The notes under the pieces were generated by a model, which had not been told where the DNA came from, did no database searches, and saw nothing but the letters and a program-made list of their open reading frames with translations. Made by a program: the position numbers and the translations under genes. This document shows, one piece after another, positions 34,777 through 50,975 of a stretch of DNA of 64,000 nucleotides; within the stretch, counting starts at the first letter, position 1, and each line of letters starts with the position of its first letter. The DNA comes from an uncultured Planctomycetales bacterium (lineage in GTDB: Bacteria; Planctomycetota; Phycisphaerae; UBA1845; PWPN01): contig CAZUAQ010000015.1 of the NCBI GenBank assembly GCA_964618455.1, forward strand, positions 14,319 to 78,318, given 5' to 3'.

Positions 34777-37071
34777 ATGTTCACTTCCATTCGCAGCTGG
34801 GTCGTTCTTTTCTGCGTTCTGACCGTCGGCCACGCCACGCTTCATGCACAGACGCCACTCGGCACGGAAATTACCTACCAGGGCAGGGTGGAGAAGAGCG
34901 GATCGCCGCTCGACGACACGGCGGACTTCGAGTTTTCTCTCTGGGACGCCGAAACGAACGGAAATCAGATCGGCTCGACGCAGATCGTCAGCAACGTCAC
35001 GGTCGACAAGGGTGTGTTCACGGTGGAACTCGACTTCGGTGCGAGCGCGTTCGATGGCGATGCACGCTGGCTCCAGATCGCCCTGCGCAGCCCGCATGAC
35101 CCGGGCAACACGCAGCTCCACGCCATATTGAGCCCGCGCCAGCCCATCACGGCCGCGCCGTACGCACAGTACGCCCTGGAGAGTCCCGGATCGGCGTGGA
35201 GCCAGAACGGGAGCGACGTGTACTATGACGCCGGCAACGTGGGGATCGGCACGACTGCCCCGACCGCCCCGCTACAAGTCGAAGGCACGGCGGTGGCGTC
35301 GAACATCTCGGTCCCGAATCCCGACAACCCCGGCGCCACCATCAACCTGAACTGGTTGAACGACGTTCCGCGCCTCCGCTACGGCGGGAGCGGAGCCGGA
35401 AACCACAACGGCTTCGCCATTCATGGGACCGGTGATTCCGTCAAGCTGCGTCTGCTCGACAACGGCGCGCTTGGGCTGGGCACCGACAGCCCCGGCAGCG
35501 TGTTCAACTCCAAGCTGGACGTCATCGGCGGGCACGTGGGCGTGAGCAACGACTACGGCTTCTTCAGCTTCAACAGCACCAGCGACGGCATCGGTGCCGG
35601 GCTGGATACCACATCCAGTGACGATCTGCATCTCTTCGCCGGGGGCTCGCAGCACGCGACCGTAACGGCCGACGGCAATGTCGGCATCGGCAGGTTAGAC
35701 CCTCTCCTTCGGCTTCACGTCGAAGAGACCGGGGACGGCGAGAACAGCGTGCTCAGGCTCGGTCGCATCGCACAGTCCAGCGGCAATTCGCAGTCCGTCA
35801 GTTTCCGGCTCGATCCGACGAACGAGGTCTTCAAGCTGGATGTGGGAGGCAATGGAAACTCATTTGCGAGGATCCACTTCGGCGACTCCAGCAGTCCCGA
35901 CAACGACGTCACGATGTTCGGAAACGTCGGCATCGGGACCACTTCACCGCAGGCCACGCTGCACGTCACCGAAGGCACCAGCGGAATGGGCGTGATCCTG
36001 CCCGGCCTGCGCGTGGAACAGAACGCGACTGGCCGCCCTCACGTCATCGGCGGGGCAAGTGAAAACGTGGTCACTGCCGACTACGCCGCCACGATCAGCG
36101 GCGGCGCGTACAACAGCGTCGAGAATAACCTCGGCACTGTCGGCGGTGGGGGCGATAACACGGCCAGCGGGGACAGCTCTACCGTCGGCGGCGGTTTACT
36201 CAATGAGGCCATCGGCTATGGCAGCACGGTCGCTGGAGGCGAGGACTGCACCGCTGGTGACAGCTACGCCACCGTGTCAGGAGGCTTTTTGAATCTGGCC
36301 AACGGCTGGTCCGCCACCATATCCGGAGGCCATCAAAATCAGGCCAACGGAGTCCTTGCCACCATATCTGGAGGCATTCTCAACAAGGCCGACGGGAGCG
36401 CTGCCACCGTTCCCGGGGGGTCCCGGAACTGGGCCGGCGGCGATTACAGCTTGGCCGCGGGGCGTCGAGCCAAGGTGCGAGACGCGGCAGAGTCCGGCGA
36501 CAGCGACGGCGACGAGGGAACATTCATCTGGGCCGACTCGACCGATGCCAGTTTCACCTCGACTGGACCTGACCAGTTCCTCATCCGCGCGGGCGGCGGT
36601 CTTGGACTCAACCGCAACGATCCATCTCACCCGTTGCACGTCGGCACTGACGGAACCAATGGCAACGGCGCCCATCTCACCGCTGGCGGCACCTGGACCA
36701 GCGGATCGAGCCGGGCATGGAAGGAGAACTTCCGCGCGCTGGACGCGGAGGAGATTCTCGACCGTGTCGCCGCCCTGCCGATCCAGCGCTGGAACTACAC
36801 CGGCAGTGACGAAGGCGACCACATCGGCCCGACCGCCGAGGACTTTCACGCGGCCTTCGGCCTCGGACACAGCGAGCAGTACATCGCCACGATTGACGCC
36901 GACGGGGTCGCCTTGGCCGCCATCCAGGCATTGAAGAAAGAACATGATGCCGCAATGGCCCGCAAACACGCCGAAATCCAATCACTCCAGACGCGGCTGG
37001 AGAGTCTCGAAGCATTGGTTGAAGAACTTAATCGCGAACAGCGCCCCTGGTCGTTCAATCAGGAGAAATGA
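34777..37071 (+). CDS. exported tail-fibre-like protein 1: conserved N-terminal domain, GNVGIG motifs, about 15-aa beta-roll repeats, C-terminal Peptidase_S74 intramolecular-chaperone domain
   Basis: SD AAAGGAGA lies 7 nt upstream. Signal peptide MFTSIRSWVVLFCVLTVGHATLHA/QTPLG. Eight to nine repeats of [AS]T[IV]SGGxxNxAxGxx at 36085-36477 (YadA-head/Hep_Hag-like). C-terminus SSRAWKENFRALD...IGPTAEDF...DGVALAAIQAL plus a coiled coil at 36706-37068. Confidence 0.85.
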   Translation: MFTSIRSWVVLFCVLTVGHATLHAQTPLGTEITYQGRVEKSGSPLDDTADFEFSLWDAETNGNQIGSTQIVSNVTVDKGVFTVELDFGASAFDGDARWLQIALRSPHDPGNTQLHAILSPRQPITAAPYAQYALESPGSAWSQNGSDVYYDAGNVGIGTTAPTAPLQVEGTAVASNISVPNPDNPGATINLNWLNDVPRLRYGGSGAGNHNGFAIHGTGDSVKLRLLDNGALGLGTDSPGSVFNSKLDVIGGHVGVSNDYGFFSFNSTSDGIGAGLDTTSSDDLHLFAGGSQHATVTADGNVGIGRLDPLLRLHVEETGDGENSVLRLGRIAQSSGNSQSVSFRLDPTNEVFKLDVGGNGNSFARIHFGDSSSPDNDVTMFGNVGIGTTSPQATLHVTEGTSGMGVILPGLRVEQNATGRPHVIGGASENVVTADYAATISGGAYNSVENNLGTVGGGGDNTASGDSSTVGGGLLNEAIGYGSTVAGGEDCTAGDSYATVSGGFLNLANGWSATISGGHQNQANGVLATISGGILNKADGSAATVPGGSRNWAGGDYSLAAGRRAKVRDAAESGDSDGDEGTFIWADSTDASFTSTGPDQFLIRAGGGLGLNRNDPSHPLHVGTDGTNGNGAHLTAGGTWTSGSSRAWKENFRALDAEEILDRVAALPIQRWNYTGSDEGDHIGPTAEDFHAAFGLGHSEQYIATIDADGVALAAIQALKKEHDAAMARKHAEIQSLQTRLESLEALVEELNREQRPWSFNQEK

Positions 37072-37469
37072 GTATCTCGCGAAGGAAGCTTTCCTGTGTT
37101 GTGGCCGCCATCATCGGCCTGGGGCTCACAGCATCGTTGGCGGTCGCCCAAACGCCTCTCGGCACGGAGTTCACGTACCAGGGCAGACTTGTCCTGAACG
37201 ACGAACCGCTCAACCACATGGCGGATTTCGACTTCTCGCTCCAGGACGCTGCTGGCTCCGGTGCCCCGCCGGTCAGTGGAAGCCAGCTCAGCTCGACGCA
37301 TACCGTAGGCATCGAGAAACTGTCGATTCCGGAGAGCGCCATTGAACTGCAGGTGGTCGCCATGTCATGCGTGGACCTCGACGGGCAATCCGTCACTCTG
37401 GCCTCGACGATTCGCAAGGCAAAACTGCGACAAAGCGAAGCCGATGTATTCAGGCTCGCCTTAGATTAA
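37068..37469 (+). CDS. small exported protein: stand-alone diverged copy of the tail-fibre N-terminal domain
   Basis: ATGA overlap with the fibre-1 stop. Signal peptide ...GLGLTASLAVA/QTPLGTEFTYQGRL...ADFDFSLQDA is collinear with QTPLGTEITYQGRV...ADFEFSLWDA of fibre 1. It could be a gene remnant. Confidence 0.5.
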   Translation: MSISRRKLSCVVAAIIGLGLTASLAVAQTPLGTEFTYQGRLVLNDEPLNHMADFDFSLQDAAGSGAPPVSGSQLSSTHTVGIEKLSIPESAIELQVVAMSCVDLDGQSVTLASTIRKAKLRQSEADVFRLALD

Positions 37470-37832
37470 GCCCTGCAAGCTTTTACGTAGGATCAGCCCT
37501 GTTAGCGACCCATCCCGCTTTAAAGCATCAGCTTATTATTCCAACTTTTATTATGTCCCAAGGCTTACTTCGTGTAGCATATAGAAGCCTCCAAACGGGT
37601 CAGAGGCCCTCACCGGCTCCCGGTGAGGTGAATCCACAGATGAAGCAGACAGTCACCGATTCTCGCGGAGTGATCGGTTTACCGAAGGAATCCCCCTTGA
37701 CAGTGATGGTACCGAGACAGTGACGGTACTGAAAAAACCTGCTGCGCGCCTTCATGAATGGCGGCCGCCCGGAAAGGGACCATACGCCCTATTGTGGTAG
37801 CTGAGCATGGCGAGGGGCGAAAGGAGAACAAC

Positions 37833-40436
37833 ATGCAGGCAAGTGATCAGCGCGTCTTGCGAATTAACCACCATTGGCAGAACCGAGCACGTGGCAGAGC
37901 AGCGGTCGCATGCCTGGTGTGGATCGCGGCGCTAAGTGTCGGTACGCGTACTGCCCGGTCCGCCACAGCCGTGGACGATCAGATCAACTTCGTCGTCATC
38001 AACAGTACGAACCATGTCATCGATGTTCTGGCCAACGATCTCGATCTTGGTGGAGAGGTCGTGACTGCTATACCTGCTCAGCCCGCCAACGGCCAGGTGC
38101 AGATCATCGCCGGGGGCACGCAGGTGGCCTACACACCGGACACCGCGTACTGCAACGACGCCATCCCGAGTCCTCCGGATGTGTTCATGTATCAGCTCTC
38201 CGGCGGCAGCGTAGCGACGGTCAGCGTGGTCGTGGCGTGCCCGTTTGTGTTGAAAGATCCGGGCAGCTTTGACACGGAGGGGGATCCGAACGTTCTGAGC
38301 TGGTACGAGGCGCGGGCTTTCTGTCGAACGCAAGTCGGGACGGACATCGCGCATAGCAAGTGTGATCAGGCGAACCCGGGCGGCGGCATGAGCGCGACGA
38401 ACGGCAACTCGTGTCCGGACATTCCCGCCTGTCTGCCGACGGACTCGCCGACTCGTTGCGGCCGACGTCAAATCCTGGAGATGCAACGCATCGCCCAAGA
38501 ATCACGGCTGAACATATGGACGGGCATCCGATGGTTCATTCGGCTGTGCAGTCCCAACGGAGCCGGATGCCAGCTCGAGAGGCGATTCACCTGGGTGGAT
38601 GGTACGCCGTTGGAAGAAGGTAATTCGGCTTTTCCTTTTTACGGTCCACTGTCTGAATTCTATCTGAACGGGGATACTACGCTTCAATCGTGTGGATTTA
38701 TGCGCGGCCGCTACGCTGAGGGGTACTTGGGCTGTACGTGCGTCGGCGGCGGAAACGACGGTCTGGCTTGCGACGGCTCGGATGATTCCTGCCCGGGAGG
38801 CGATTGCCTGGATACGGAGGGTTACCCCTGCAACCTTTGCGGATGTTACGCGGGACCCGTCAATCAGGGGAAGCCGTGTGATGAAACCGGTGATTGCGGC
38901 AACAACGGGGTGTGCTTCGACGCCGGCGAGTACGGTGTGGATTGCGTCGGGTCCAACTTTGGAATGCTGGCCCATGAAGAATGTGATAATGCGTCACCCA
39001 CATTTTTTCCCGTGACCCATGTACTTTGTGATAATCCGAAACTTGGGTTTGAAGTGTGCGGGTGCGACGATCCGAATGACTGTCCGGCCGGCTTTAATTC
39101 GTGCGGCCCGGGAAAGACGTGCAGCAGTACGAATGTCTGTTGGCCTGCGGGGCAGGGGCAAGAAGGCGATCCGTGCGAGTTTCCCAACGACTGTGCGGCC
39201 GGACTCTCGTGCGACGTTTCGTGTACATTCGACCAGGAGTGCAGCCATACGGACGACGCCGGTTGGCCGATCTACTATCCGGAGGCGCATGGCACGCACA
39301 CGTGCATGCCGACGATACCGGCCATGCTGGGTGACAGCGACGATGATGGGTTTCACGATCAGGAGGAAGGGTGCCCGCTTGATCCCAACAAAGTCACGCC
39401 GGGGGATTGCGGGTGCGGTGCGGTGGAGGTCGATTGTGACAACAATCTGATCTCCGATTGCATCGACCTTGACCATCCGGCTCGGTTTGAAGGCTTCGCA
39501 TCGGGGGTTGGGGCGTTTCAGCTTAACGGCACGGCGAGTGTCGACAGCGAAAGCATCCGGCTGACGGAAGCAGTTCAAGCACAAAACGGATCGGTGATCT
39601 TCGAGCCTGTGTCGAGCGTGCCGATCGACAGCTTTACCGTGACGTACGATTTCTTCATGGGCGGTGGTACCGGCGCGGACGGCATGAGCTTCGCGCTGAT
39701 CGATGCCGACGTGACGGACGATACGATCCTGCTCGGTGAGGGTGGGGCCAATCAGCCATTCGTCGTCAGCCTGGACACGTATCGCTGGAATCCTGCCGGC
39801 GGAAATCACGCTCTCTTGCGGAGTTATGGCGCGACACTGGCTGATGTGTTGGTCGCTCAGCCATTGGATGACGCAACGTGGCAGAAGGCTTCGATCACCT
39901 TTGAAGCCGGCGCCGCGACACTGGTGTTGACGGATGCGAACGGCGTCGACACGACGATCTTTTCGTCGGTGTCGGTTCCCGGATGGTCAGCCATTCGGGC
40001 GCGTTACGGATTCGGCGCTCGCACGGGAGGGGCGACCAATGAGCACCGCGTGGATAACGTCCGCTTCACAGCCACGTCGCTGACCAACGACTGCAACGGT
40101 AACAGCACGCCCGATCCATGCGACCCCGACGCGGACGGCGATGGCGTGATTGACGACTGCGATCTCTGTCCCGGTACGGTTTCCGGTGCGACGGTTGACG
40201 TGGAAGGCTGTCCCGATCCTTCGATTCCAGCCGACTTCGACGATGACGGCGACGTGGACGCCCACGATGTGGATGCGTTTATCGCATGTGCTTCCGGTCC
40301 GACCGTGCCCATCGCGGGCGGCTGCGAGGACAAGGATCTCGACAACGACGGTGACGGAGATCAATCCGACTTCGCGATCGTGCAGCGCTGCCTGAGCGGT
40401 GAGAATATTCCGGGCGATCCGAACTGTGCGGATTAG
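37833..40436 (+). CDS. exported multi-domain lectin/cysteine-rich giant with C-terminal TSP3/dockerin-like module
   Basis: SD AAGGAG lies 7 nt upstream. Signal/TM AAVACLVWIAALSV. Cadherin/VCBS-like unit (VIDVLANDLDLGG..., about 37965-38237). C-type-lectin-like unit (SWYEARAFC...IWTGIRW...FTWVDGTP, about 38280-38717). About 200 aa with more than 35 Cys. Legume-lectin/LamG-like unit (FQLNGTASVD...GADGMSFALID..., about 39480-40073). TSP3 plus double DxDxDG module at 40113-40433. Confidence 0.8.
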   Translation: MQASDQRVLRINHHWQNRARGRAAVACLVWIAALSVGTRTARSATAVDDQINFVVINSTNHVIDVLANDLDLGGEVVTAIPAQPANGQVQIIAGGTQVAYTPDTAYCNDAIPSPPDVFMYQLSGGSVATVSVVVACPFVLKDPGSFDTEGDPNVLSWYEARAFCRTQVGTDIAHSKCDQANPGGGMSATNGNSCPDIPACLPTDSPTRCGRRQILEMQRIAQESRLNIWTGIRWFIRLCSPNGAGCQLERRFTWVDGTPLEEGNSAFPFYGPLSEFYLNGDTTLQSCGFMRGRYAEGYLGCTCVGGGNDGLACDGSDDSCPGGDCLDTEGYPCNLCGCYAGPVNQGKPCDETGDCGNNGVCFDAGEYGVDCVGSNFGMLAHEECDNASPTFFPVTHVLCDNPKLGFEVCGCDDPNDCPAGFNSCGPGKTCSSTNVCWPAGQGQEGDPCEFPNDCAAGLSCDVSCTFDQECSHTDDAGWPIYYPEAHGTHTCMPTIPAMLGDSDDDGFHDQEEGCPLDPNKVTPGDCGCGAVEVDCDNNLISDCIDLDHPARFEGFASGVGAFQLNGTASVDSESIRLTEAVQAQNGSVIFEPVSSVPIDSFTVTYDFFMGGGTGADGMSFALIDADVTDDTILLGEGGANQPFVVSLDTYRWNPAGGNHALLRSYGATLADVLVAQPLDDATWQKASITFEAGAATLVLTDANGVDTTIFSSVSVPGWSAIRARYGFGARTGGATNEHRVDNVRFTATSLTNDCNGNSTPDPCDPDADGDGVIDDCDLCPGTVSGATVDVEGCPDPSIPADFDDDGDVDAHDVDAFIACASGPTVPIAGGCEDKDLDNDGDGDQSDFAIVQRCLSGENIPGDPNCAD

Positions 40437-40515: not shown

Positions 40516-42624
40516 ATGAGTTTACGAACGATCGGAAAGACATTGATTATTGTGCTGGCGGTGTTTCCCAGCGTGACGTCGGGCGCCGACTACGTCTGGG
40601 ACGGCTCTCGCACTTCCACCAACTGGAACGCCCTGGGCCCCGGCTTCGAATTCGATACCAATTGGACGGCGTCTCTCTTCTTTCCCGACTCCAACGACAC
40701 CGTCACCTTTCCCGAAACGGCGGCCGACTTTATCGTCACGCTCAACGGCAACCGCTCGGTCCTGTCCGCCACGTTCTCCGGCGCGAATGGTTACACGCTC
40801 AACGACGACACGCTGACGCTGCTTACCGGCGACCTGACCGCCACCGGCACGGCCACGCACACGATCAACAGCAACGTGACCCTGGGCAGCGCCGGCAACT
40901 GGAACATCGCCGGCGACCTGATCCTCAACGGTAATCTGACGGGCGGGCTCAACCTCGAACTGCCCGGCACGGGCTCGCTGACGCACACGGCCGGCACGAG
41001 TTCGCTCAACAAGGTGACCATCGGACCGGCCCAAACGGTGAATCTCACCGGCGGCAGCCTTTCCGCCACGGCCGGCCTGGACAACTCGGCGGGCGGAACG
41101 CTCAATCACCGCGATGGCGCGCTCAATATCTCCGGCAGCGGCTTCCTCCCCACCGCCGGCACCAGCGACTACACTATCGACGGCCCCACGGACGCCGATC
41201 TCCCCCACCTGACCCTCGGTGAAGGCGCCACCCTCAACACCCTCAGACTCACCGTCGGCGATGACGAAAACGGCGCACTCACCCTCATCGACGGCGCCGT
41301 CGTCAACAGCACTGGAGGCAACGTCGGCGACTTCACCACCAGCCTCGGCTCTGTCACCGTCTCGGGCACTGACCCCATCGGCGACCCCTCCACCTGGGAC
41401 ATAACAGGTTTACTCGAACTGGGCGGCGACGGCACGACTCTGCTCATCGACGGCGGTGGGCAGGTCTCCGCATCCTCCATCGATATTGCTCGGACCACGA
41501 CCGAGGACGCCTCGGTCACCGTCAGCGGAACGGACTCCAACGGCAACCCATCGGCCCTGACCGTCAGCGGCCAACTCCGCCTGGCCAACGGCTACCCCAG
41601 TGACGCATCGCTCGACATCCTCGACGGGGCCCACGTATCCAACAACAGCGCCTCACTCGGCCCCAACGACAATGACTCCTCCAGTATCGACGTCCTGGTG
41701 AGTGGAGCCGATTTCAACAACAATCCCGCCACCTGGACCAGCAGCGGCGACCTGGACGTCGGCACGAGCGACCTGGATTACACCTCGACGAGAGTCGACA
41801 TCGACACCGGCGGCCTTGTCACCGTCTCGGGAACCGCCGCCGTAAACCTCAGCGGGCGCGTCCGCCTTCAGGGCGGCACGTTCATCGCCTCGACCATCGA
41901 TCACACCAATGGCGGCATGTTCAACTTCACCTCCGGTGAGCTCAACGTGGATAACTTCGAGGGGGTGTTGGTGCAGAACGGCGGCACGCTCTCGATCGGA
42001 GATTCGCCCGGCCAGACGAACATCTCGCAGGACTACACGCTCAACGCCGGGTCGCTGGACATCGAACTCGGCGGGACCGCGCCGGGTGTCGAGCACGATC
42101 AACTCGCGGTCACCGGCACGGCCAACTTGGGCGGCACACTCGATGTATCTTACGACAACTTCACCGCGACGCCGGGGCAGTCGTTTGTCATTCTCACCGC
42201 CGGCACGCTCTCAGGTACGTTTGGCACGGTCAACTACCCCGACGGACAACCCTGGACCATTGAGTACGACACCAATGCCGGAACGGTAACGGTCACGGTT
42301 CCCTGTCCGGATGGCGACGCCGACGACGACGGGGTGTGTGATAGTAACGATCTCTGCCCGAATACGGTTCCCGGTGCGCCGGTGGATGGTGATGGCTGTC
42401 CTTCGCCCGCGATCCCGGCCGACTTCGATAACGACGGCGACGTGGATGGCGATGATGTCGACGCGTTTGAGGCGTGTGCCTCCGGACCGGCCGTCCCCAT
42501 CGCGGGCGGCTGTGAGAGCAAGGATCTCGACAATGACGGTGACGGAGATCAATCCGACTTCGCGGTCGTGCAACGCTGTCTGAGCGGTGAGAATATTCCT
42601 GGCGATCCGAACTGTGCGGAATGA
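40516..42624 (+). CDS. exported PATR (autotransporter-associated beta-strand repeat) beta-helix protein with C-terminal TSP3/dockerin-like module
   Basis: Signal peptide MSLRTIGKTLIIVLAVFPSVTSGA. PATR-type start YVWDGSRTSTNWNA...NWT...DTVTF...VLSATFSGANGYTLN. Long T/G/N/L-rich beta-helix region. Shared module at 42301-42621. Confidence 0.8.
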   Translation: MSLRTIGKTLIIVLAVFPSVTSGADYVWDGSRTSTNWNALGPGFEFDTNWTASLFFPDSNDTVTFPETAADFIVTLNGNRSVLSATFSGANGYTLNDDTLTLLTGDLTATGTATHTINSNVTLGSAGNWNIAGDLILNGNLTGGLNLELPGTGSLTHTAGTSSLNKVTIGPAQTVNLTGGSLSATAGLDNSAGGTLNHRDGALNISGSGFLPTAGTSDYTIDGPTDADLPHLTLGEGATLNTLRLTVGDDENGALTLIDGAVVNSTGGNVGDFTTSLGSVTVSGTDPIGDPSTWDITGLLELGGDGTTLLIDGGGQVSASSIDIARTTTEDASVTVSGTDSNGNPSALTVSGQLRLANGYPSDASLDILDGAHVSNNSASLGPNDNDSSSIDVLVSGADFNNNPATWTSSGDLDVGTSDLDYTSTRVDIDTGGLVTVSGTAAVNLSGRVRLQGGTFIASTIDHTNGGMFNFTSGELNVDNFEGVLVQNGGTLSIGDSPGQTNISQDYTLNAGSLDIELGGTAPGVEHDQLAVTGTANLGGTLDVSYDNFTATPGQSFVILTAGTLSGTFGTVNYPDGQPWTIEYDTNAGTVTVTVPCPDGDADDDGVCDSNDLCPNTVPGAPVDGDGCPSPAIPADFDNDGDVDGDDVDAFEACASGPAVPIAGGCESKDLDNDGDGDQSDFAVVQRCLSGENIPGDPNCAE
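42218..42624 (+). repeat. 407-bp direct repeat, copy A (3' end of the PATR gene)
   Basis: Hand alignment to 45060-45466 gives 399/407 identical with no indels. The offset is exactly 2842 bp. Confidence 0.9.
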
Positions 42625-42782
42625 AGGGCGATACGGCTATGCGGCGGGCCTGGTGAATGGCGACCCCGAGCCGGCATCGGTGGCGCTGCTGATGCTCGGT
42701 GGGCTGGCGCTGCTCATGCCGAGCGGTATGCCCGGCTCGAGAAACTGATGTCGACACGCGAACTCGAACAGGAGGACCTGAA

Positions 42783-45014
42783 ATGAATCTTTCGAAGCAC
42801 ACTTCTCGAATTATCCAGAATCTGCTCACCGCGGTGGTCTGTGCGGCCGTCTTGTCGGGATCCGCAAGGACCGCCCACGCCCAGACGCCGCTGGGAGCCG
42901 TGTGGACGTATCAAGGAAAGCTTGAACTGAGCAGCTCGCCGGTCGATGACACCGCCGATTTCGAGTTCTCTCTCTGGGACGCCGACGTGAACGGCAACCA
43001 GATCGACTCGACGCAGACGGTCAGCAACGTCGAGATCGTGGACGGGTTGTTCACGGTCGAGCTCGACTTCGGCGCGGATGCATTCAACGGCGACGCCCGC
43101 TGGCTGGAGATATGGGTACGTAGTCCGCACGACCCAAGCGACTTAACGTCGTATGAACTTCTCAGTCCGCGCCAGCCGCTGACGGCGGCGCCGTATGCCC
43201 TCTTCGCCCTCGACAGCGGAGGTGGGGGCACGGGCGACGGCCATTCGCTCGACGCCGTCGATGGCACGCCGACTGACGCGGTGTTCGTCGACAACGACGG
43301 CAACGTCGGGATCGGGACCACCACCCCCGGAGTTCCGCTCGACGTGTATGGATCCTTGCGTGTGAGTCGCGCCGAACAACTTGATCAGGCACACACAACA
43401 GGGGTGGGCTTCATTACAGAACTCTCCATTGGCCAATCTTTTACAGCCGGCTCGAGCGGCCCCCTGACCAGAATCGATGTCCGCACCTTGGCTGCCAGCC
43501 TGTCGTCAGGGGGTACATTGTCGATTTATGAAGGCAACGGCTACGGAGGCACCTTGCTGACAACCCAACCGTACACGTGGCCCGTCGGGCAGAACATGTG
43601 GATAGCCAATACGCTGGTCAACCCGGTCAGTGTGTCGGCGGGCCAGCAGTACACGTTTCGGTTCCAGAGTTCGGACGGCAGCATGCGGCTTGCTATGGAC
43701 GGCGAGGGCGGTTATCCCCTGGGCTCCCTGATCGACTACCCCGATTATGACCTGCGATTCCGCACCTACGTGATTCCGGATTCAGCCCCGGCGCTTGCTG
43801 TCACTGATTTGGGGAACGTCGGTATCGGGACGACCTCTCCCTCCCGGCTCCTCGACGTCAACGGTACGGCCAAGATCGGCGGCAGCCTGTTTTTCGATTC
43901 GCCGAGCACCTTCGAGGTGGCCCACGAGAACAACACGGGTATGCGCATCGATCCGGTCGCGAACAGCGTCCACCTCGAGGCGGACAATCTCCTCGGTCTC
44001 ACGCTGACCGCTGGCGGGAACGTCGGCATCGGTACGTCAGACCCACTCCGACGGCTTCACGTCGAAGAGACCGGGGACGGTGAGAACAACGTGATCAGAC
44101 TCACTCGCAAAGCCCAGTCCAGCAGCGATTCGCAGTCCGTCACCTTTTGGCTCGACCCGACAAATGAGGTCTTCAAGTTGGATGTGGGAGGCAATGGAAA
44201 CGCAGCGGCGAGGATCCACCTGGGGGACTCCAGTAGTCCTGACAACGACGTGACGATGCTCGGCAACGTCGGCATCGGAACGGCTACTCCCACGCGCGGA
44301 AAGGTCGATATCGAGGGATTCGAAAACCACACGCCCGGTCCATTTGGCTACCTGAACGACACCGGAGGCTCGGGAACCAATCCCGGCACGGGTCCAACCA
44401 CCTACTCACTGTACGCCTCGCATCGCATCGCCGCGAGCGAGTTCAACGCCCATTCCGACGCGCGGATCAAAAACGTGCTCGGGCGATCCGACGGCGACGC
44501 GGACCTCAACACGCTGATGCGGATCAAGGTGACGGATTACACGATGGCCGACACCGTGGCCCATGGCGACCGGCCTCGCAAGAAGGTGATCGGCCAGCAG
44601 GTCAGCAAGGTCTTCCCGCAGGCGGTTACGACCTCGACCAACGTTGTCCCGGACATCTATCGCCTGGGCGATGCCGAGTCCTGCTGGATCCGGCTGGACT
44701 CGCCCGTCGAGCCGCCGTTGCGGTCTGGCGATCAAGTTCGGCTGATCACCGGCGACGGCGCCGCGCTTCACGAAGTGCTCGACGTGAAGGAAGACGGATT
44801 TCGGGTGTCAGCGTCTGTCAGTGGAAGCGTCTTTGTGTACGGCCGACAGGTGGATGACTTCCATCACGTCGACTACGAAGCGATTGCCATGCTCAACGTC
44901 TCCGCGACGCAGGCGCTCAACGAGCAGCTCAGTGAAAAGGACGCCGAGATCAAGGCGCTGAACGAACGCCTGGCCCGGCTCGAAGCGCTCGTCGAGCGGC
45001 TGTCTTCGGAGTGA
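42783..45014 (+). CDS. exported tail-fibre-like protein 2 (paralogue of fibre 1) with an S74 chaperone domain carrying an internal insertion
   Basis: SD AGGAGG upstream. Signal peptide ...AVLSGSARTAHA/QTPLGAVWTYQGKL. The N-terminal domain and the internal GNVGIG...LHVEETGDGEN...KLDVGGNGN...SSSPDNDVTM cassette are shared with fibre 1. C-terminus HSDARIKNV...coiled coil at 44454-45011. Confidence 0.85.
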   Translation: MNLSKHTSRIIQNLLTAVVCAAVLSGSARTAHAQTPLGAVWTYQGKLELSSSPVDDTADFEFSLWDADVNGNQIDSTQTVSNVEIVDGLFTVELDFGADAFNGDARWLEIWVRSPHDPSDLTSYELLSPRQPLTAAPYALFALDSGGGGTGDGHSLDAVDGTPTDAVFVDNDGNVGIGTTTPGVPLDVYGSLRVSRAEQLDQAHTTGVGFITELSIGQSFTAGSSGPLTRIDVRTLAASLSSGGTLSIYEGNGYGGTLLTTQPYTWPVGQNMWIANTLVNPVSVSAGQQYTFRFQSSDGSMRLAMDGEGGYPLGSLIDYPDYDLRFRTYVIPDSAPALAVTDLGNVGIGTTSPSRLLDVNGTAKIGGSLFFDSPSTFEVAHENNTGMRIDPVANSVHLEADNLLGLTLTAGGNVGIGTSDPLRRLHVEETGDGENNVIRLTRKAQSSSDSQSVTFWLDPTNEVFKLDVGGNGNAAARIHLGDSSSPDNDVTMLGNVGIGTATPTRGKVDIEGFENHTPGPFGYLNDTGGSGTNPGTGPTTYSLYASHRIAASEFNAHSDARIKNVLGRSDGDADLNTLMRIKVTDYTMADTVAHGDRPRKKVIGQQVSKVFPQAVTTSTNVVPDIYRLGDAESCWIRLDSPVEPPLRSGDQVRLITGDGAALHEVLDVKEDGFRVSASVSGSVFVYGRQVDDFHHVDYEAIAMLNVSATQALNEQLSEKDAEIKALNERLARLEALVERLSSE

Positions 45015-45466
45015 TTGCTGAGGATATGGCAAACGTTAGCCCGCGCTCGGTCCGGTATCCGTTTGGCACGGTCAACTACCCCGACGGACAACCCTGGACC
45101 ACTGAGTACGACACCAATGCCGGAACGGTAACGGTCACGGTTCCCTGTCCGGATGGCGACGCCGACGACGACGGGGTGTGTGATAGTAACGATCTCTGCC
45201 CGAATACGGTTCCCGGTGCGCCGGTGGATGGTGATGGCTGTCCTTCGCCCGCGATCCCGGCCGACTTCGATAACGACGGCGACGTGGATGGCGATGATGT
45301 CGACGCGTTTGAGGCGTGTGCCTCCGGACCGGCCGTCCCCATCGCGGGCGGCTGTGAGAGCAAGGATCTCGACAACGACGGTGACGGAGATCAATCCGAC
45401 TTCGCGGTCGTGCAACGCTGCCTGAGCGGTGAGAACGTTCCGGGCGATCCGAACTGCGCGGATTGA
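45011..45466 (+). CDS. orphan TSP3/dockerin-like C-terminal module ORF (duplicate of the PATR gene 3' end; possible remnant or recombination cassette)
   Basis: GTG start overlaps the fibre-2 stop (GTGA). There is no signal peptide. From aa 18 onward it is near-identical to the last 135 aa of the PATR protein. Confidence 0.5.
   Translation: MIAEDMANVSPRSVRYPFGTVNYPDGQPWTTEYDTNAGTVTVTVPCPDGDADDDGVCDSNDLCPNTVPGAPVDGDGCPSPAIPADFDNDGDVDGDDVDAFEACASGPAVPIAGGCESKDLDNDGDGDQSDFAVVQRCLSGENVPGDPNCAD
45060..45466 (+). repeat. 407-bp direct repeat, copy B
   Basis: See copy A. Seven of the eight mismatches lie in the last about 100 bp, and four of those match the module of the lectin gene (40.3-40.4 kb). 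Confidence 0.9.
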
Positions 45467-45629
45467 GCAGATCGCGCGTTCCGATCACATATGAAGGAAT
45501 TCGGATCGGAACGTGATCAGCCCTTGCGATACATATCGCAGCATGAGCACACTTCACTGTGAATGGGGTCAATCGACCCCGTTCACAAGTATGCTCAAGC
45601 CCGCTCCGACAACCTCAGGCCGCCTGACC

Positions 45630-46424
45630 TCAGGCCGCCGCGGTGACGGTGTGCAGGATCTCGGAATTCAGCAGGTCGGCCACGGAATCCACGACGATGT
45701 CCGGGCGGTAGGCGTAGTGGGCGAGTTCTTCGCGTTTCGTGCCACCGGAGAGCACCAGCACCGTGCGGTAGCCCATCTGAACACCGCCGAGGATGTCGGT
45801 CTCCATCGTGTCGCCGATCATCGTCGTCTCACCCGTGGTCAGGCCCATCGCCTTGCGAGCCTCCCGCATCATGACGGGGCTGGGCTTGCCGACGCTGAAC
45901 GCCTGGGCTCCGGTCGCGGATTCCAGCATCGCCACCAGCGCGCCACACCCCATCCGCGTCCCGCCGTTGGCGGTCGGGCAGCTCGCGTCCAGGTTCGTGG
46001 CGATGAGCTTTGCACCTCGGAGAAGCATCTGGATGGCGGTATCGATCATCTCCATGCTGAGCGTCCGCCCTTCCCCGACGACCACGTAATCCGGATCGTG
46101 GTCGACGATTGCGTACCCATTGGAATGCAACGCATTCAGCAGACCGCCTTCGCCGATCACGTAGGCGGTGCCGTAAGGCTTCTGCCGGGCGAGAAACTGG
46201 GCCGTCGCCATGGCGCACGTGTAGATATGATCGTCCTCGATATTGAATCCCATGCGGCGCAGTTTCGTCGCCACGTCGCGACGCGTCCGCTGGCTGTTGT
46301 TGGTCACGAAGAGAAACGGAATCTCCGCCTCCCGAAGCTCGTTAATGAATCGATCCGCATCGGGGATCATCTGACTCCCCCGGTAGATCACGCCATCCAT
46401 GTCGATCAGGAATCCTTGTTTCAT
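45630..46424 (-). CDS. HAD-superfamily subfamily IIA phosphatase (NagD-like)
   Basis: Motif I FLIDMDGVIY. FVTNNS. GKPS. GDTMETDILGG. Collinear with E. coli NagD. Confidence 0.85.
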   Translation of the reverse strand: MKQGFLIDMDGVIYRGSQMIPDADRFINELREAEIPFLFVTNNSQRTRRDVATKLRRMGFNIEDDHIYTCAMATAQFLARQKPYGTAYVIGEGGLLNALHSNGYAIVDHDPDYVVVGEGRTLSMEMIDTAIQMLLRGAKLIATNLDASCPTANGGTRMGCGALVAMLESATGAQAFSVGKPSPVMMREARKAMGLTTGETTMIGDTMETDILGGVQMGYRTVLVLSGGTKREELAHYAYRPDIVVDSVADLLNSEILHTVTAAA

Positions 46425-46963
46425 CTCACTACATCCTTCGTTTGCAGGCCACTGAAAACTCTGTCCTGCCTAATCCCATCCGAGAAGTCGGTCCAGGCCT
46501 CCGATGCCACGGCACCCGCTAACTGGCACGTCTTCACCGTATCTCGTGCAAGGCCAATGCCAAATCGCTTTAGAGGGCAGAAGAGATCGCCCCACAGTCC
46601 TTGATATCAGCCCGATCACGCACGCACACGATGAAGCGTAACGACTCTAATCCGCCTACCAATAGCAATAATGAGGATAATCTGAGAATATGATTAACTC
46701 TCAAGATCATTGGTCATGCCAATACACAAGCACACCAATGGTGCTGCCAGGAGAAAGTCTCCAGGCTCCCCTGTCCGCAAGTTAGACACCGACTCCCCGC
46801 CATGCCTATGAAGTGCGCGACCCATAACTCCATTCCTGTTAAGGATTTGTGTAGGAGCTACCCAGGGCGATCCAACTCGAATAGAATGCACGCTTAGGAT
46901 CGTCTGCACAAAGCCCGGAAATCCGGCACCCCTGAGAGACCAGTAACGCATTCCCACTGATTC

Positions 46964-47814: not shown

Positions 47815-49038
47815 ATGGCCGATACCACAACCAGCAAACCCGCCAACGAAGAGCACAGCGAGATCGTCAATGATCCGGCCAGCGTCGCCAAGGTCAAGGA
47901 AGAACTGGAAGCCGCCCGGGTGGATCCGGAACCGAAGGGCGAGCCCAAGGTCCACCGCTACCTGGGATACGTCTGCGAGATCAAAGCCTCGGATCTTCAC
48001 TTCAAATCGAATGCGCGGGTTCACGTACGTCACAAGGGTGAACTCAAGCCCATCAAGGGCGAGCCACTGAGCCCCGAGGAAGTGGAAGCCATCTGGTTCG
48101 AGGTCATGAACGAGCATCAGCTCAAGCAGTTGGCGGAGAAAGGCGCCTCGGACTTTGCCTACCAGCTTGGCGACGGGGACCGCTTCCGCGTGAACATTTT
48201 CCGCCAGCGCGGCACCCTCAGCGTGGCGGCCCGACGTGTGAACGCCGAGATCTTCGATTTCAAGGCATTGCACCTGCCGGAATCGATGTACCGTATTACC
48301 GAATACCACCAAGGGCTGGTCCTGCTGGCGGGAATCACCGGATCGGGTAAGTCGACGACGATCGCCGCTGCGCTGGACCACATCAACGCGACGCGTGCCT
48401 GCCACATCGTGACGGTGGAAGACCCGATCGAATACCTGTTCCAGGATAAGAAGGCGCTCGTCAACCAGCGCGAGGTGGGCGTGGATGTCAACAACTTCCA
48501 GGATGCCCTGAAGTACCTGATGCGTGAAGACCCGGACGTGGTGCTGGTCGGCGAGATGCGCGACGAGGAAACGTTCGCGGCGGCGTTGAACGCGGCCGAG
48601 ACGGGCCACCTCGTGTTCGGAACGGTCCACGCCTCGAGCAGTTCCCAGACCATCAACCGCGTGCTCGACCTCATGCCGGAGGGCTCCCGCGAACTGATCC
48701 GGCAGACCATGGTCTTCAACCTCCAGGCGATCATCTGCCAGAAGCTGCTCAAGAGCATCAAGCCGGGTGTCCCGCGGGTACCGGCGGTGGAAATCATGTT
48801 CGCCAATCCGACGGTGCGCAAGCTCATCGACGAGAAGCGGGACGACGAGATCAGCAAGGTCATCCGCGCCTCGCTGGCCGAGGGCATGCTGGACATGAAC
48901 GAATGCCTGAGGCGGCTGGTCGAGAGCGAATTCATCACCACGGAGACCGCCTACAGCGCCTCGCCGAATCCGCAGGAATTGAAGATGCGGCTGAAGGGCA
49001 TCACCGCCGGTGGTGCGGGCGGCGGCATTCTCGGCTAG
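47815..49038 (+). CDS. pilT: type IV pilus retraction ATPase PilT/PilU family
   Basis: ASDLHF. Canonical Walker A GITGSGKSTT. Asp box VTVEDPIEY. Walker B REDPDVVLVGEMRD. His box TGHLVFGTVHA. Acidic N-terminal extension of about 55 aa. Confidence 0.88.
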   Translation: MADTTTSKPANEEHSEIVNDPASVAKVKEELEAARVDPEPKGEPKVHRYLGYVCEIKASDLHFKSNARVHVRHKGELKPIKGEPLSPEEVEAIWFEVMNEHQLKQLAEKGASDFAYQLGDGDRFRVNIFRQRGTLSVAARRVNAEIFDFKALHLPESMYRITEYHQGLVLLAGITGSGKSTTIAAALDHINATRACHIVTVEDPIEYLFQDKKALVNQREVGVDVNNFQDALKYLMREDPDVVLVGEMRDEETFAAALNAAETGHLVFGTVHASSSSQTINRVLDLMPEGSRELIRQTMVFNLQAIICQKLLKSIKPGVPRVPAVEIMFANPTVRKLIDEKRDDEISKVIRASLAEGMLDMNECLRRLVESEFITTETAYSASPNPQELKMRLKGITAGGAGGGILG

Positions 49039-49202
49039 ACTGAACCAGTCCCGGCTCCGCCGCGCGACGCTGCTGATGCTCAGAGGACCGAGCCGGGTTC
49101 ATCGCGAGCGGGGCTACTCACCCCCGCCCGATATGGTTATCATTCCCGACTCGGGGTGGACGTACCCCGCTTGGACTTGATTCTACACCCAGCGGAGCTT
49201 TC

Positions 49203-50975
49203 ATGGACCCGATGAGACACCGTATCTATTCTCTACCTATAGCTTCCCTCGGACTTTTTCTGCTGATGTCCGGGCGCGCCGAGGGCGCGACGCTGCTCGG
49301 GGCCCTGCCCGATCCCGGAGGCTACGTCAGCGCGACCCGCGTCATCCTGATCTTCGCAGCCGCGATTCCCTGGCTGGCCTTCTGCCAGTGGGTGAACACG
49401 GACACGGACTTCGTCCGGCGAATGAAGAAGGAAATCTGGAACAACGTGGTCTTCTGGGGGGGACTGGCAGGCCTGCTGTCCTGGATGATACTGCCCTGGA
49501 ACACGACGGGGCTCTTCGCCGCCGGTTTCGGTCTCTGGTTCGTGATCACCGTCGGCGTGTGCAGCATCTACGTGGTGATGCGGAACGGCCTGGTGGATCC
49601 CGGCGCCCGGGTGTTCACGCCGCGCCACATCAAGGGCGTGTTCGGGAACATGGGCAAGAAGAAGGAGCAGAAGCTGGACGCCGTCGAGCGGGTCAAACTC
49701 AACGCCCACGACGGTACCAAGATCACCGTTCCCTCCGACCCGAACAAGATGGAAGCCTACGAAGACGCACAGAGTCTTCTCTTCGATGCGTTGTGGCGCC
49801 GGGCGACGGAAGTGGAGCTGATGGTCGGGAACGAAGCGGCCCGGCTTGCCTACCGGATCGACGGTGTCGTGACCCCGCGGAACGATCTGCTCGATCATGA
49901 ATCCGCCGACCGGGCGCTGACGTTTCTCAAGCGTGTGGCGGGGCTGGATATCGAGGAGCGCCGTAAACCCCAGAACGGTGCGCTGTCCGGCGCCATCAAC
50001 AGGACGGACGCGGGCATGACCGAGGTCGAAGTCCGCTCGAGCGGGACCACGCAGCACGAGCGACTGTCCCTGCGGATCACCGGCGAGGAGACACGACTGC
50101 GGATCAACGACCTCGGCATGAAGGAGAGCATGCAGGAGCGGTTCAGCGAAATCTGCAAGCTCCCCGGGGGCCTGGTGCTGGCGAGCGGACCGAAAGCCTC
50201 GGGCGTGACATCCACGCTCTATGCCTGCCTCCGAACGCATGACGCGTTCATGCAGAACCTGCTGACCATCGAGCGCGAGCCGCTGATGGAGCTGGAGAAC
50301 ATCACGCAGCACATCTACGACGCGACCAAGCACGAAGCCAGCTACGCCCGCCAGTTCCAGACCGTCCTTCGGCGTGAGCCGGACGTGGTGATGGTCAGCG
50401 ATTGCCAGGACCGGGAAACGGCTCACCTGGCTGCCAAATCGGCCGAAGACCAGAAGAAGATCTACATGGGCATCCAGGCGCGCGACTGCTTCGACGCCTT
50501 GAAGAAGCTGGTGAGCCTGGCCGGCGATACCGAGGCGGTGGCCAACGTACTGCAGGTCATCACGTCGCAGCGACTGGTGCGCAAACTCTGCATTGCCTGC
50601 CGGCAGGCGTACAAGCCGGACACCCAGTTGCTGAAGAAGGCCAATCTGCCCATCGACAAGATCGACCACTTCTACCGTCCGCCGCCGGACGGCCTCGTCG
50701 ACCAGAAGGGCAACCCGATCATCTGCAGCAACTGCCAGGGGTCGGGATACTTCGGCCGAACGGGCGTATTCGAAATGCTCGAGGTGGATGACAGCGTGCG
50801 CGAGTTGATCCGCAAGGGCCAGCCGGTCAACACGATCAAGGCCCAGTGCCGTAAGAACGGCATGCTCTACCTCGAAGAAGTCGCCCTGCAGAAGGTCATC
50901 ACGGGGGTCACGAGTATGAACGAGATCCTCCGCGTCCTGCGCGAAGAGGAGGCCGTGGGTCGGCCGCGTCGCTAA
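49203..50975 (+). CDS. membrane-anchored GspE/PilB-family homologue with degenerate nucleotide-binding motifs (predicted pseudo-ATPase)
   Basis: Four N-terminal hydrophobic segments. GspE core is present (RIDGV, LDIEERRKPQNG, tetracysteine CIAC...CSNC, GRTGVFEMLEV). Walker A reads GPKASGVT, the Walker B region reads DVVMVSDCQD, and the His box reads KKIYMGIQA. Confidence 0.8.
   Translation: MDPMRHRIYSLPIASLGLFLLMSGRAEGATLLGALPDPGGYVSATRVILIFAAAIPWLAFCQWVNTDTDFVRRMKKEIWNNVVFWGGLAGLLSWMILPWNTTGLFAAGFGLWFVITVGVCSIYVVMRNGLVDPGARVFTPRHIKGVFGNMGKKKEQKLDAVERVKLNAHDGTKITVPSDPNKMEAYEDAQSLLFDALWRRATEVELMVGNEAARLAYRIDGVVTPRNDLLDHESADRALTFLKRVAGLDIEERRKPQNGALSGAINRTDAGMTEVEVRSSGTTQHERLSLRITGEETRLRINDLGMKESMQERFSEICKLPGGLVLASGPKASGVTSTLYACLRTHDAFMQNLLTIEREPLMELENITQHIYDATKHEASYARQFQTVLRREPDVVMVSDCQDRETAHLAAKSAEDQKKIYMGIQARDCFDALKKLVSLAGDTEAVANVLQVITSQRLVRKLCIACRQAYKPDTQLLKKANLPIDKIDHFYRPPPDGLVDQKGNPIICSNCQGSGYFGRTGVFEMLEVDDSVRELIRKGQPVNTIKAQCRKNGMLYLEEVALQKVITGVTSMNEILRVLREEEAVGRPRR

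Follow-up and report, generated by a model that had tools for sequence, protein, structure and literature searches.

How does the tail of one surface-protein gene come to lie, almost unchanged, on the far side of a fibre gene, and what does the small open reading frame that carries this second tail represent? The window, by which is meant the whole 64-kb stretch of DNA analysed here, contains a cluster of surface-protein genes, an 11-kb island in a part of the chromosome otherwise given over to housekeeping genes, the host of which is probably a Phycisphaerae bacterium. Within the island a 407-bp direct repeat flanks the second of two fibre genes; its left copy (A) ends an intact gene and its right copy (B) occupies an orphan open reading frame. 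The present data favor, with some reservation, a model by which copy B is a gene-tail remnant that has been kept near-identical to the intact gene by gene conversion.

The island and its repeat

The genes of the island are as follows.

34777 to 37071, plus strand: fibre gene 1, with a Peptidase_S74 chaperone domain
37068 to 37469, plus strand: 3'-truncated fibre gene, with a signal peptide and N-terminal domain only, its ATG overlapping the fibre-1 stop; a second gene remnant in the island
37758 to 40436, plus strand: lectin-domain surface-protein gene, bearing module copy C
40516 to 42624, plus strand: intact surface-protein gene (702 aa), with a signal peptide, T5SS/PEP-CTERM-associated repeats and a dockerin-type C-terminal module
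42783 to 45014, plus strand: fibre gene 2 (743 aa), ATG at 42783 after AGGAGG, with a signal peptide, GNVGIGT repeats and a tail-fibre-like C-terminus
45011 to 45466, plus strand: orphan open reading frame, starting at GTG 45011 or ATG 45026, with GAGG just 2 nt from the ATG

Fibre gene 2 matches tail-fibre PHROGs with E values down to 2e-13, and in Pfam its Peptidase_S74 score stays below the cut-off (18.7 bits vs 22), whereas fibre 1 passes at 34.5 bits. A mobile-element or prophage setting was considered for the island and rejected, as the window consists of housekeeping and secreted-protein genes with no integrase, transposase or other phage gene; nor was any recombinase, invertase or reverse transcriptase found in the 64 kb.

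The repeat and the related module copy are arranged as follows.

40127 to 40436, plus strand: module copy C, the end of the lectin gene; about 82% identical overall, with identity climbing from 5' to 3'
42218 to 42624, plus strand: repeat copy A, comprising 27 passenger codons (FGTVNYPDGQPWTIEYDTNAGTVTVTV), the 107-codon TSP3/dockerin-type C-terminal module and the TGA of the 702-aa gene
42261 to 42533 (counterpart 45103 to 45375), plus strand: perfect core, 273 bp identical, the putative latest conversion tract
42534 to 42624, plus strand: 3' segment, with similar distances among A, B and C, containing seven of the eight A/B differences and suggestive of an older three-way history
45060 to 45466, plus strand: repeat copy B, the same tail as in A (399/407), starting 45 bp past the fibre-2 stop

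Realignment of 42218-42624 with 45060-45466 returned the values that an earlier note on this DNA had given, a gapless alignment with 399 of 407 positions identical at an offset, or period, of 2842 bp. The copies stand in direct orientation, 2.4 kb apart, and self-comparison of the 64 kb yields them as the sole long near-identical repeat; a 34-mer taken from the repeat is present at exactly two places in the window, and in none of 100 shuffles. Both boundaries are sharp, the right one falling on the final base of the stop codon, and beyond the edges no significant similarity was detected on either side, the right flanks showing nothing and copy B having no homologous sequence upstream of 45060. 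Hidden homology in the left flank, hinted at by 12-16 extra bases in blastn, was rejected on finding it no higher than in shuffled controls (P = 0.18-0.6).

The orphan reading frame bears out two further statements of the earlier note, namely that its GTG start (45011) overlaps the fibre-2 stop (TGA 45012-45014) and that it lacks a signal peptide, no hydrophobic N-terminal segment being present. The public record starts the orphan at ATG 45026, giving a protein of 146 aa (P0001). In the neighbouring surface genes (fibre genes 1 and 2, the truncated fibre gene and the 702-aa gene) a GGAG-type site precedes the start by about 5-10 nt, by contrast with which the site of the orphan is poor. Orphan modules without a signal peptide, abutting unrelated upstream genes, occur in other genomes too (L012-L014 and L017). 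Synteny with L012, where, just as in the window, an orphan module is followed by a minus-strand HAD-type hydrolase, was set aside as coincidence, the L012 hydrolase being unmatched in the window at E <= 1e-4.

The C-terminal module and the PEP-CTERM relic

Copy A had been taken for the 3' end of a PATR gene, and the TIGR04393 model agrees, scoring 28.5 bits against a cut-off of 23 over three stretches, while the Pfam PATR family (PF12951) gave no match to the 702-aa protein at E <= 0.01. The passenger-leader-module architecture is old; its junction recurs in P0058, a protein of another organism (69% identity over query residues 11-145). Because P0058 has the same junction, and because copy B opens with 27 passenger codons, A can be taken as the native architecture and B as a fragment of a gene built in this way. 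In almost all single-stretch matches (6028 clusters), the module sits at the extreme C-terminus. Sequence and structural model together describe it as a cysteine-rich, calcium-loop domain of secreted proteins. Dockerins have a duplicated calcium-binding loop plus helix (F-hand), and two DxDxDGDxD loops, both leading into a helix, can be seen in the module. The model of the orphan protein exceeds a pLDDT of 90 at residues 41-146, the leader portion being poorly predicted, and the PDB folds that match this model best are dockerins without exception (for 2y3n_B, TM is 0.78 over the target and rmsd 1.2 A, but E = 0.068). Pfam Dockerin_1 reaches 18.6 bits on copy C, under the cut-off of 22.9, and does not match A or B.

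Immediately beyond copy A lies one further feature.

42665 to 42715, plus strand: decayed PEP-CTERM motif (DPEPASVALLMLGGLALL), in the +1 frame directly 3' of the copy A stop, the terminal Arg cluster absent

This motif scores 16.7 bits with TIGR02595 (cut-off 16; model positions 2-18 of 24) and 14.1 bits with Pfam PEP-CTERM, under the cut-off of 20.7, and it aligns to the PEP-CTERM tails of five homologues. A complete signal of this kind runs from a PEP motif through a hydrophobic span to a basic cluster at the C-terminal end of a secreted protein; since the motif here has no Arg cluster and is separated from the preceding frame by a stop and a frame shift, it is best regarded as a relic and not as a working signal. 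A recent graft of the copy A module onto a PEP-CTERM gene is an idea weakened by the junction in P0058. Clean excision was also tried and rejected, deletion of the 407 bp leaving the passenger one base out of frame with the relic. Alternatively, a neighbouring gene may have been deleted and left the relic as its tail.

Origin of copy B

The eight A/B differences fall at 42260 (I/T), 42534, 42579, 42594, 42595 (I/V), 42600, 42615 and 42621 (E/D), and a recount agrees with the five synonymous (42534, 42579, 42594, 42600 and 42615) and three conservative changes given before. The clustering toward the 3' end that had been described is also borne out, with seven of the eight lying within 88 bp (P = 0.003) and an uninterrupted perfect run of 273 bp at 42261-42533 (P = 0.0013 for a run that long), statistics that derive from eight differences in one genome and to which site-to-site rate variation could contribute. 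Comparison with copy C divides the repeat at about 42519-42534. Upstream of this point there are 51 sites at which A equals B and C differs, and zero sites of other kinds; downstream there are 4 sites with A and B alike against C, 4 differences in A only and 3 in B only (Fisher 6.7e-7 for the switch in site pattern). Synonymous divergence follows the same division, being 0.23 (A-B), 0.19 (A-C) and 0.14 (B-C) over the last 102 bp, against 0 (A-B) and 0.50-0.57 (A-C) upstream.

As A, B and C are equidistant at the 3' end while upstream A equals B and both are far from C, we infer conversion acting on older paralogues and not one fresh duplication. The proposal that recent duplication and/or ongoing conversion had been at work thus stands in part: conversion is upheld by the perfect core and the switch in site pattern, but a single fresh duplication fits poorly with the star-like 3' end. 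The claim that four sites shared by B and C make B a mosaic did not hold. B does equal C at 42534, 42579, 42600 and 42621, but A equals C at the other three 3' sites, giving a star-like pattern with no C-derived patches in B; copy C is about 93% identical around these sites, and the four matches are not proof of a mosaic because point mutation in A alone leaves B equal to C.

The model that follows proposes that copy B goes back to another member of the 702-aa gene's family, which would have been 5'-truncated and left behind fibre gene 2, the left limit of homology corresponding to the point of truncation. The remnant and the intact tail would since have evolved in concert. In the order of events suggested by the site patterns, the last ~90 bp may first have been homogenised among A, B and C, after which a more recent intrachromosomal gene conversion would have overwritten a core of at least 273 bp, while older divergence would survive at the left edge, which is short, and in the last ~90 bp. 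That homology ends at the stop codon is explained by the module being almost always at the extreme C-terminus, so that paralogues share nothing downstream. Copy B would itself be non-functional. Its frame is intact over 135 codons and five of its eight changes are synonymous (binomial P = 0.019), as would be expected equally of a gene under selection and of a remnant that is repaired from a copy under selection. Most likely the A/B repeat is an ordinary by-product of surface-gene turnover.

A simpler scenario, which we consider unlikely, is one recent event in which exactly 407 bp of A were copied into the spacer downstream of fibre gene 2, with point mutation alone thereafter. Such an event would account for the 98% identity, the sharp edges and the lack of flanking similarity, and the passenger codons in B do indicate origin from an A-type gene. 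However, the differences are spread very unevenly (P = 0.001-0.003), the distance between A and B over the last ~90 bp is no smaller than that of either copy to C, and a copy ending exactly on a stop codon would be coincidence. The left limit of identity, read above as the exact point of truncation, is explained equally well by a plain 407-bp copy-paste.

A broader conjecture, with little probability in our estimation, makes the module and its stop codon a recombining cassette of Phycisphaerae surface islands, B-like copies serving as donors or partners through which genes swap tails and the A/B pair allowing fibre 2 to be lost and regained. The stranded PEP-CTERM tail, the three-way homogenised 3' end and the similar orphan modules of unrelated genomes are compatible with such a cassette without demonstrating it.

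It is improbable that the arrangement is an artefact of assembly, arising either from a misthreaded graph (the true order being passenger, module and HAD flank, with fibre 2 elsewhere) or from joined strain variants. Misthreading is conceivable because the 273-bp exact core exceeds usual short-read k-mers; these identical bases part the left SNP from those on the right, and the source, a single 119,627-bp contig, comes from an uncultured organism for which just one assembly is on record. However, the junctions are unique on both sides of both copies, the eight differences keep the reading frame and are for the most part synonymous, as in real paralogues, and three independent assemblies of another organism contain similar orphan modules. 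A path that runs through both copies would, moreover, be the only linear one to use all four flanks.

Whether the repeat serves programmed variation, with B as a silent donor cassette or with A and B as a switch that removes or amplifies fibre gene 2, can be judged in part from its geometry. Four properties suit a switch, namely a length of 407 bp, 98% identity, a 273-bp exact core and direct orientation. Homologous recombination between A and B would, to judge from the sequence, delete 2842 bp comprising the PEP-CTERM relic and fibre gene 2, cleanly and with the 702-aa gene staying in frame. Copy B further resembles a silent cassette in having no N-terminus and a poor ribosome-binding site, and conversion among the copies is evident. 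Yet the potential for recombination is equal in any 400-bp direct repeat, and the 64 kb hold a single cassette and not an array (three module copies, two of them ending intact genes and one truncated). Nor is there diversity to donate, since at 399 of 407 identical positions B offers just three conservative amino-acid changes, and the window encodes none of the recombinases, invertases, transposases or reverse transcriptases sought.

Genome and metagenome scans likewise returned no population or sister-genome variant. Scanning species-representative genomes with fibre 2 gave a nearest relative of 50% identity (Phycisphaerales CP070718), with the module or the passenger gene at none of 10 loci, and scanning metagenomes gave no locus with the exact 34-mer from the repeat and one distant locus for the 702-aa protein. 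Exact-protein look-ups with fibre 2, the 702-aa protein, the orphan, the HAD hydrolase and HisF found none on record, and the nearest HAD homologues (79-80% identity) have unrelated neighbourhoods. Programmed variation is accordingly judged very unlikely. To our knowledge, surface variation is not known in the phylum Planctomycetota; if sub-populations with fibre gene 2 excised or amplified existed, the locus would offer a testable case. A diversity-generating retroelement was rejected, as the mismatches are not adenine-specific (the bases at the eight variable sites are T,T,T,T,A,T,T,A in A and C,C,C,C,G,G,C,T in B, neither being adenine-only on one strand) and no RT domain was found in the scanned open reading frames of at least 200 aa across the window.

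It is equally hard to credit the orphan as a working product, made either as a small protein by coupling to fibre 2 or as a fusion with fibre 2 through a -1 frameshift. The GTG start that overlaps the fibre-2 TGA could permit coupling, and the frame is open for 76 bp ahead of the fibre-2 stop (44936-45011), with GAAAAG at 44934-44939; the reading frame is intact with few non-synonymous changes, and stand-alone module reading frames are found elsewhere. However, the predicted fold is extracellular and dependent on disulfides and calcium, and the orphan has no signal peptide to match; the canonical slippery heptamer is absent; and fibre 2, like fibre 1, stops right after its terminal coiled coil, so that nothing appears to be missing from fibre 2. 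The low non-synonymous count is itself expected if B has been repaired from A.

Returning to the remnant maintained by conversion, if this account is true the locus provides a small, clear example of surface-island turnover in an uncultured member of the Planctomycetota, in which turnover would comprise truncation, homogenisation of tails by conversion and exchange of anchors (a dockerin-type module vs PEP-CTERM). It would also bear on annotation, as the 146-aa 'hypothetical protein' of the public record would probably be a gene fragment, and the fibre-2 reading frame, where extended to a GTG, would cross the dead PEP-CTERM motif.

Comparison with known systems

The duplicated tuf genes of Salmonella are the textbook case of concerted evolution by RecA-dependent gene conversion. 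As in tuf, two near-identical tracts are seen here whose ends are the ends of homology, with older divergence outside the latest tract; unlike tuf, one partner is a fragment with neither signal peptide nor N-terminus, and the tract is short (273-407 bp), a more distant third copy sharing only the last ~100-140 bp. Direct repeats in bacteria are generally subject to deletion or amplification through homologous recombination, and for this the 407 bp, with their 273-bp exact stretch, would supply ample RecA homology and an in-frame product. Unlike a switch, however, the A/B repeats carry no mark of being regulated or selected.

Antigenic variation from silent cassettes is exemplified by pilE/pilS of Neisseria. 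In the vlsE/vls system of Lyme Borrelia, the silent cassettes form contiguous arrays and have about 90% identity to the central cassette region of vlsE (PMC11499132). The present locus is like vls and pilS in placing a truncated copy without an N-terminus near a surface-protein gene, with evidence of segmental conversion, but unlike them in having one cassette, at 98% identity, that comprises no variable exposed region but a conserved module for anchoring. Finally, dockerin modules on surface proteins of Planctomycetota have given rise to the 'planctosome' proposal (PMC6461901). In the window the module is found on lectin and T5SS/PEP-CTERM-repeat proteins and not on peptidases, and Pfam Dockerin_1 stays sub-threshold; like the planctosome dockerins, however, it is a C-terminal calcium-loop module with a predicted dockerin fold, following thrombospondin-type-3-like repeats in secreted multidomain proteins.

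The repeated unit and the surface-protein island

Self-comparison of the 64-kb window yields a single long near-identical repeat, and the 407-bp direct repeat described in the earlier note is borne out: copy A (42218-42624) and copy B (45060-45466), 2842 bp apart from start to start, match at 399/407 positions in a gap-free alignment, the eight differences being clustered, as first noted, and comprising five synonymous changes together with I/T, I/V and E/D. A search of the window for a 34-mer from the repeat gave exactly two hits, against none in shuffles. The left edge of identity is abrupt (42218/45060), the right edge is the final base of the TGA stop, and neither flank holds extra similarity above shuffled controls. 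At the variable sites copy A carries A or T in 8/8 cases (P about 5e-4) and copy B carries G or C in 7/8, with no adenine-specific pattern on one strand. The organism is uncultured and a single assembly underlies all of these results; in it the 273-bp exact core is longer than short-read k-mers and the threading of A and B is as given by the assembly. That A and B are real paralogues, not an artefact, is favoured by four unique junctions and by differences that stay in frame and are mostly synonymous.

The window is a chromosomal stretch of ~61% G+C with housekeeping genes (IspD, TGT, XseA, DapF, CarA, MTHFR, HisF, PilT, PilB/GspE and SurA), its closest database relatives carry Phycisphaerae or Phycisphaerales labels, and no integrase, transposase, invertase, reverse transcriptase or phage gene was found in it. 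Both copies lie in an island of secreted-protein genes spanning 34.7-45.5 kb.

Features of the island and its downstream neighbour
34777-37071: fibre gene 1, Peptidase_S74
37068-37469: 3'-truncated fibre gene, signal peptide and ~65 aa of conserved N-terminal domain only
37758-40436: lectin-domain protein gene, ending in module copy C
40516-42624: gene whose 702-aa product carries T5SS/PEP-CTERM-associated repeats; copy A is its 3' end
42665-42715: decayed PEP-CTERM motif for sorting (DPEPASVALLMLGGLALL), lacking the Arg cluster; read in the +1 frame with respect to the 702-aa gene
42783-45014: fibre gene 2, from its likely ATG
up to 45466: orphan ORF containing copy B
45630-46424, minus strand: HAD hydrolase (HAD-IIA, NagD-like), next after the island

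The ATG of the truncated fibre gene overlaps the fibre-1 stop (ATGA). Fibre gene 2 likely starts at ATG 42783, with AGGAGG ~7 nt upstream and a signal peptide after it; GTG 42699, giving a 771-aa ORF, was rejected as an upstream over-extension through the decayed motif. Likewise rejected was an Arg/His-rich, 363-aa plus-strand ORF (45513-46604) with no family match, an antisense shadow of the HAD-IIA hydrolase. Genes for PilT-family and PilB/GspE-type ATPases (47815-50975) lie 2.3 kb downstream of the island.

The passenger ends with the first 27 codons of the repeat (FGTVNYPDGQPWTIEYDTNAGTVTVTV), whose pattern recurs in homologues of that block, and the remaining 107 encode a cysteine-rich module that combines thrombospondin-type-3-like DxDxDG repeats with two Ca-loop/helix units. 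Its AlphaFold model (32 homologues) reaches pLDDT >90 at residues 41-146. Dockerins make up all of its top hits in the PDB (2y3n_B: E = 0.068, rmsd 1.2 A, TM 0.78 over the target); Pfam Dockerin_1 stayed below threshold. By exhaustive profile search, 6028 protein clusters (1414 at E <= 1e-10) carry the module, in proteins of 90-2000 aa and almost always at the extreme C-terminus, which accounts for A, B and C being alike only up to the stop codon. P0058, a protein from another organism, matches leader and module at 69% identity with an identically arranged passenger-leader-module junction, so that the architecture of copy A is native and old; copy B opens with passenger codons and is thus a piece of a gene of this type.

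Probable dual history of the repeat tail

A perfect A/B run of 273 bp (42261-42533; P = 0.0013 under uniform placement) is accompanied by seven of the eight differences within 88 bp (P = 0.003). With copy C as third sequence, 51 sites in 42315-42518 have A = B with C different and none is of another kind, whereas 42519-42624 holds four such sites (two in the stop codon), four A-only and three B-only; Fisher's test for this switch, uncorrected for the choice of breakpoint, yields 6.7e-7.

Synonymous divergence between module copies
Last 102 bp (42520-42621): A-B 0.23; A-C 0.19; B-C 0.14
Upstream (42316-42519): A-B 0; A-C 0.50-0.57; B-C 0.50-0.57

Taken together, site patterns and synonymous divergence indicate two histories within the repeat tail: A, B and C were probably homogenised some time ago over the last ~90-140 bp, with drift in each since, and the rest of A and B was probably made identical very recently. 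As read from sequence, this uneven pattern is the signature of gene conversion on older paralogues. The earlier note had allowed for recent duplication as well as conversion among module copies; the latter is upheld by the clustering, the pattern switch and the synonymous divergence, which one recent 407-bp duplication and subsequent mutation would explain poorly. Its argument that four differences matching C make B a mosaic does not hold, because, with C ~93% identical in this part, plain mutation in A also leaves B = C, and the reverse holds at three sites. A 275-bp block shared by fibre genes 1 and 2 at 84% identity (35665-35939 vs 44007-44281), outside which they are 72% identical (N-terminus) or unalignable at the DNA level, is possibly another conversion patch.

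Probable gene remnants in the island

The ORF holding copy B lacks a signal peptide and an N-terminal part, the predicted fold of copy B is of a secreted, Ca- and disulfide-dependent type, and its leader on its own gives a poor structure prediction. GGAG-type sites lie ~5-10 nt ahead of the start codon in neighbouring surface-protein genes; ATG 45026 of the orphan has a GAGG just 2 nt off and GTG 45011 no such site at proper distance. In the public record the orphan is a 146-aa protein (P0001) that falls into one 90%-identity cluster with the 702-aa protein. Elsewhere, too, modules without signal peptide abut or overlap an unrelated upstream gene at its 3' end.

Orphan modules in other genomes
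L012, 7920-8402 (also L013, L014): TSP3 coding extends upstream of the called ATG
L017, 6725-7078: orphan module

Copy B is read as a gene remnant, and a functional orphan ORF is the less likely reading. Free of stop codons from 44936 onwards, the orphan's frame runs across the final 26 codons of fibre gene 2 and has GAAAAG at its start; 44934-45014 contains no canonical slippery heptamer, and a frameshift fusion is unlikely. GCGCGTTC occurs <=10 nt from the stop in the 3' flanks of both the P0058 gene (L018 982-1031) and copy B (45467-45490), probably by chance.

Directly 3' of the stop of copy A, in the +1 frame, stands ...GLVNGDPEPASVALLMLGGLALLMP..., which clears the cut-off of the NCBIfam PEP-CTERM model (16.7 against 16 bits), has PEP-CTERM in 5/5 of its best families, falls under the Pfam cut-off (14.1 against 20.7 bits) and can be aligned to five passenger-block homologues at their PEP-CTERM tails. 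Out of frame and without a terminal Arg cluster, it appears to be a dead sorting signal. It is more likely the tail of a deleted neighbouring gene, which P0058 favours, than the former tail of the 702-aa gene. This relic, copy B and the truncated fibre gene make three remnants in 11 kb.

Recombination and overall reading

Repeats of several hundred bp serve RecA-dependent recombination. From this general knowledge and the repeat geometry, an exchange between A and B would remove a 2842-bp segment carrying the relic and fibre gene 2; the reading frame of the 702-aa gene would survive with <=3 amino-acid changes, and unequal exchange would amplify the unit. The on/off switch or silent donor cassette proposed earlier is unsupported, as such geometry does not amount to a switch where the window has one cassette, almost no diversity to donate and no dedicated recombinase. 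Overall the locus is best read as a known kind of event: inside a rearranging surface-protein island, a truncated paralogue evolves in concert with the intact copy.
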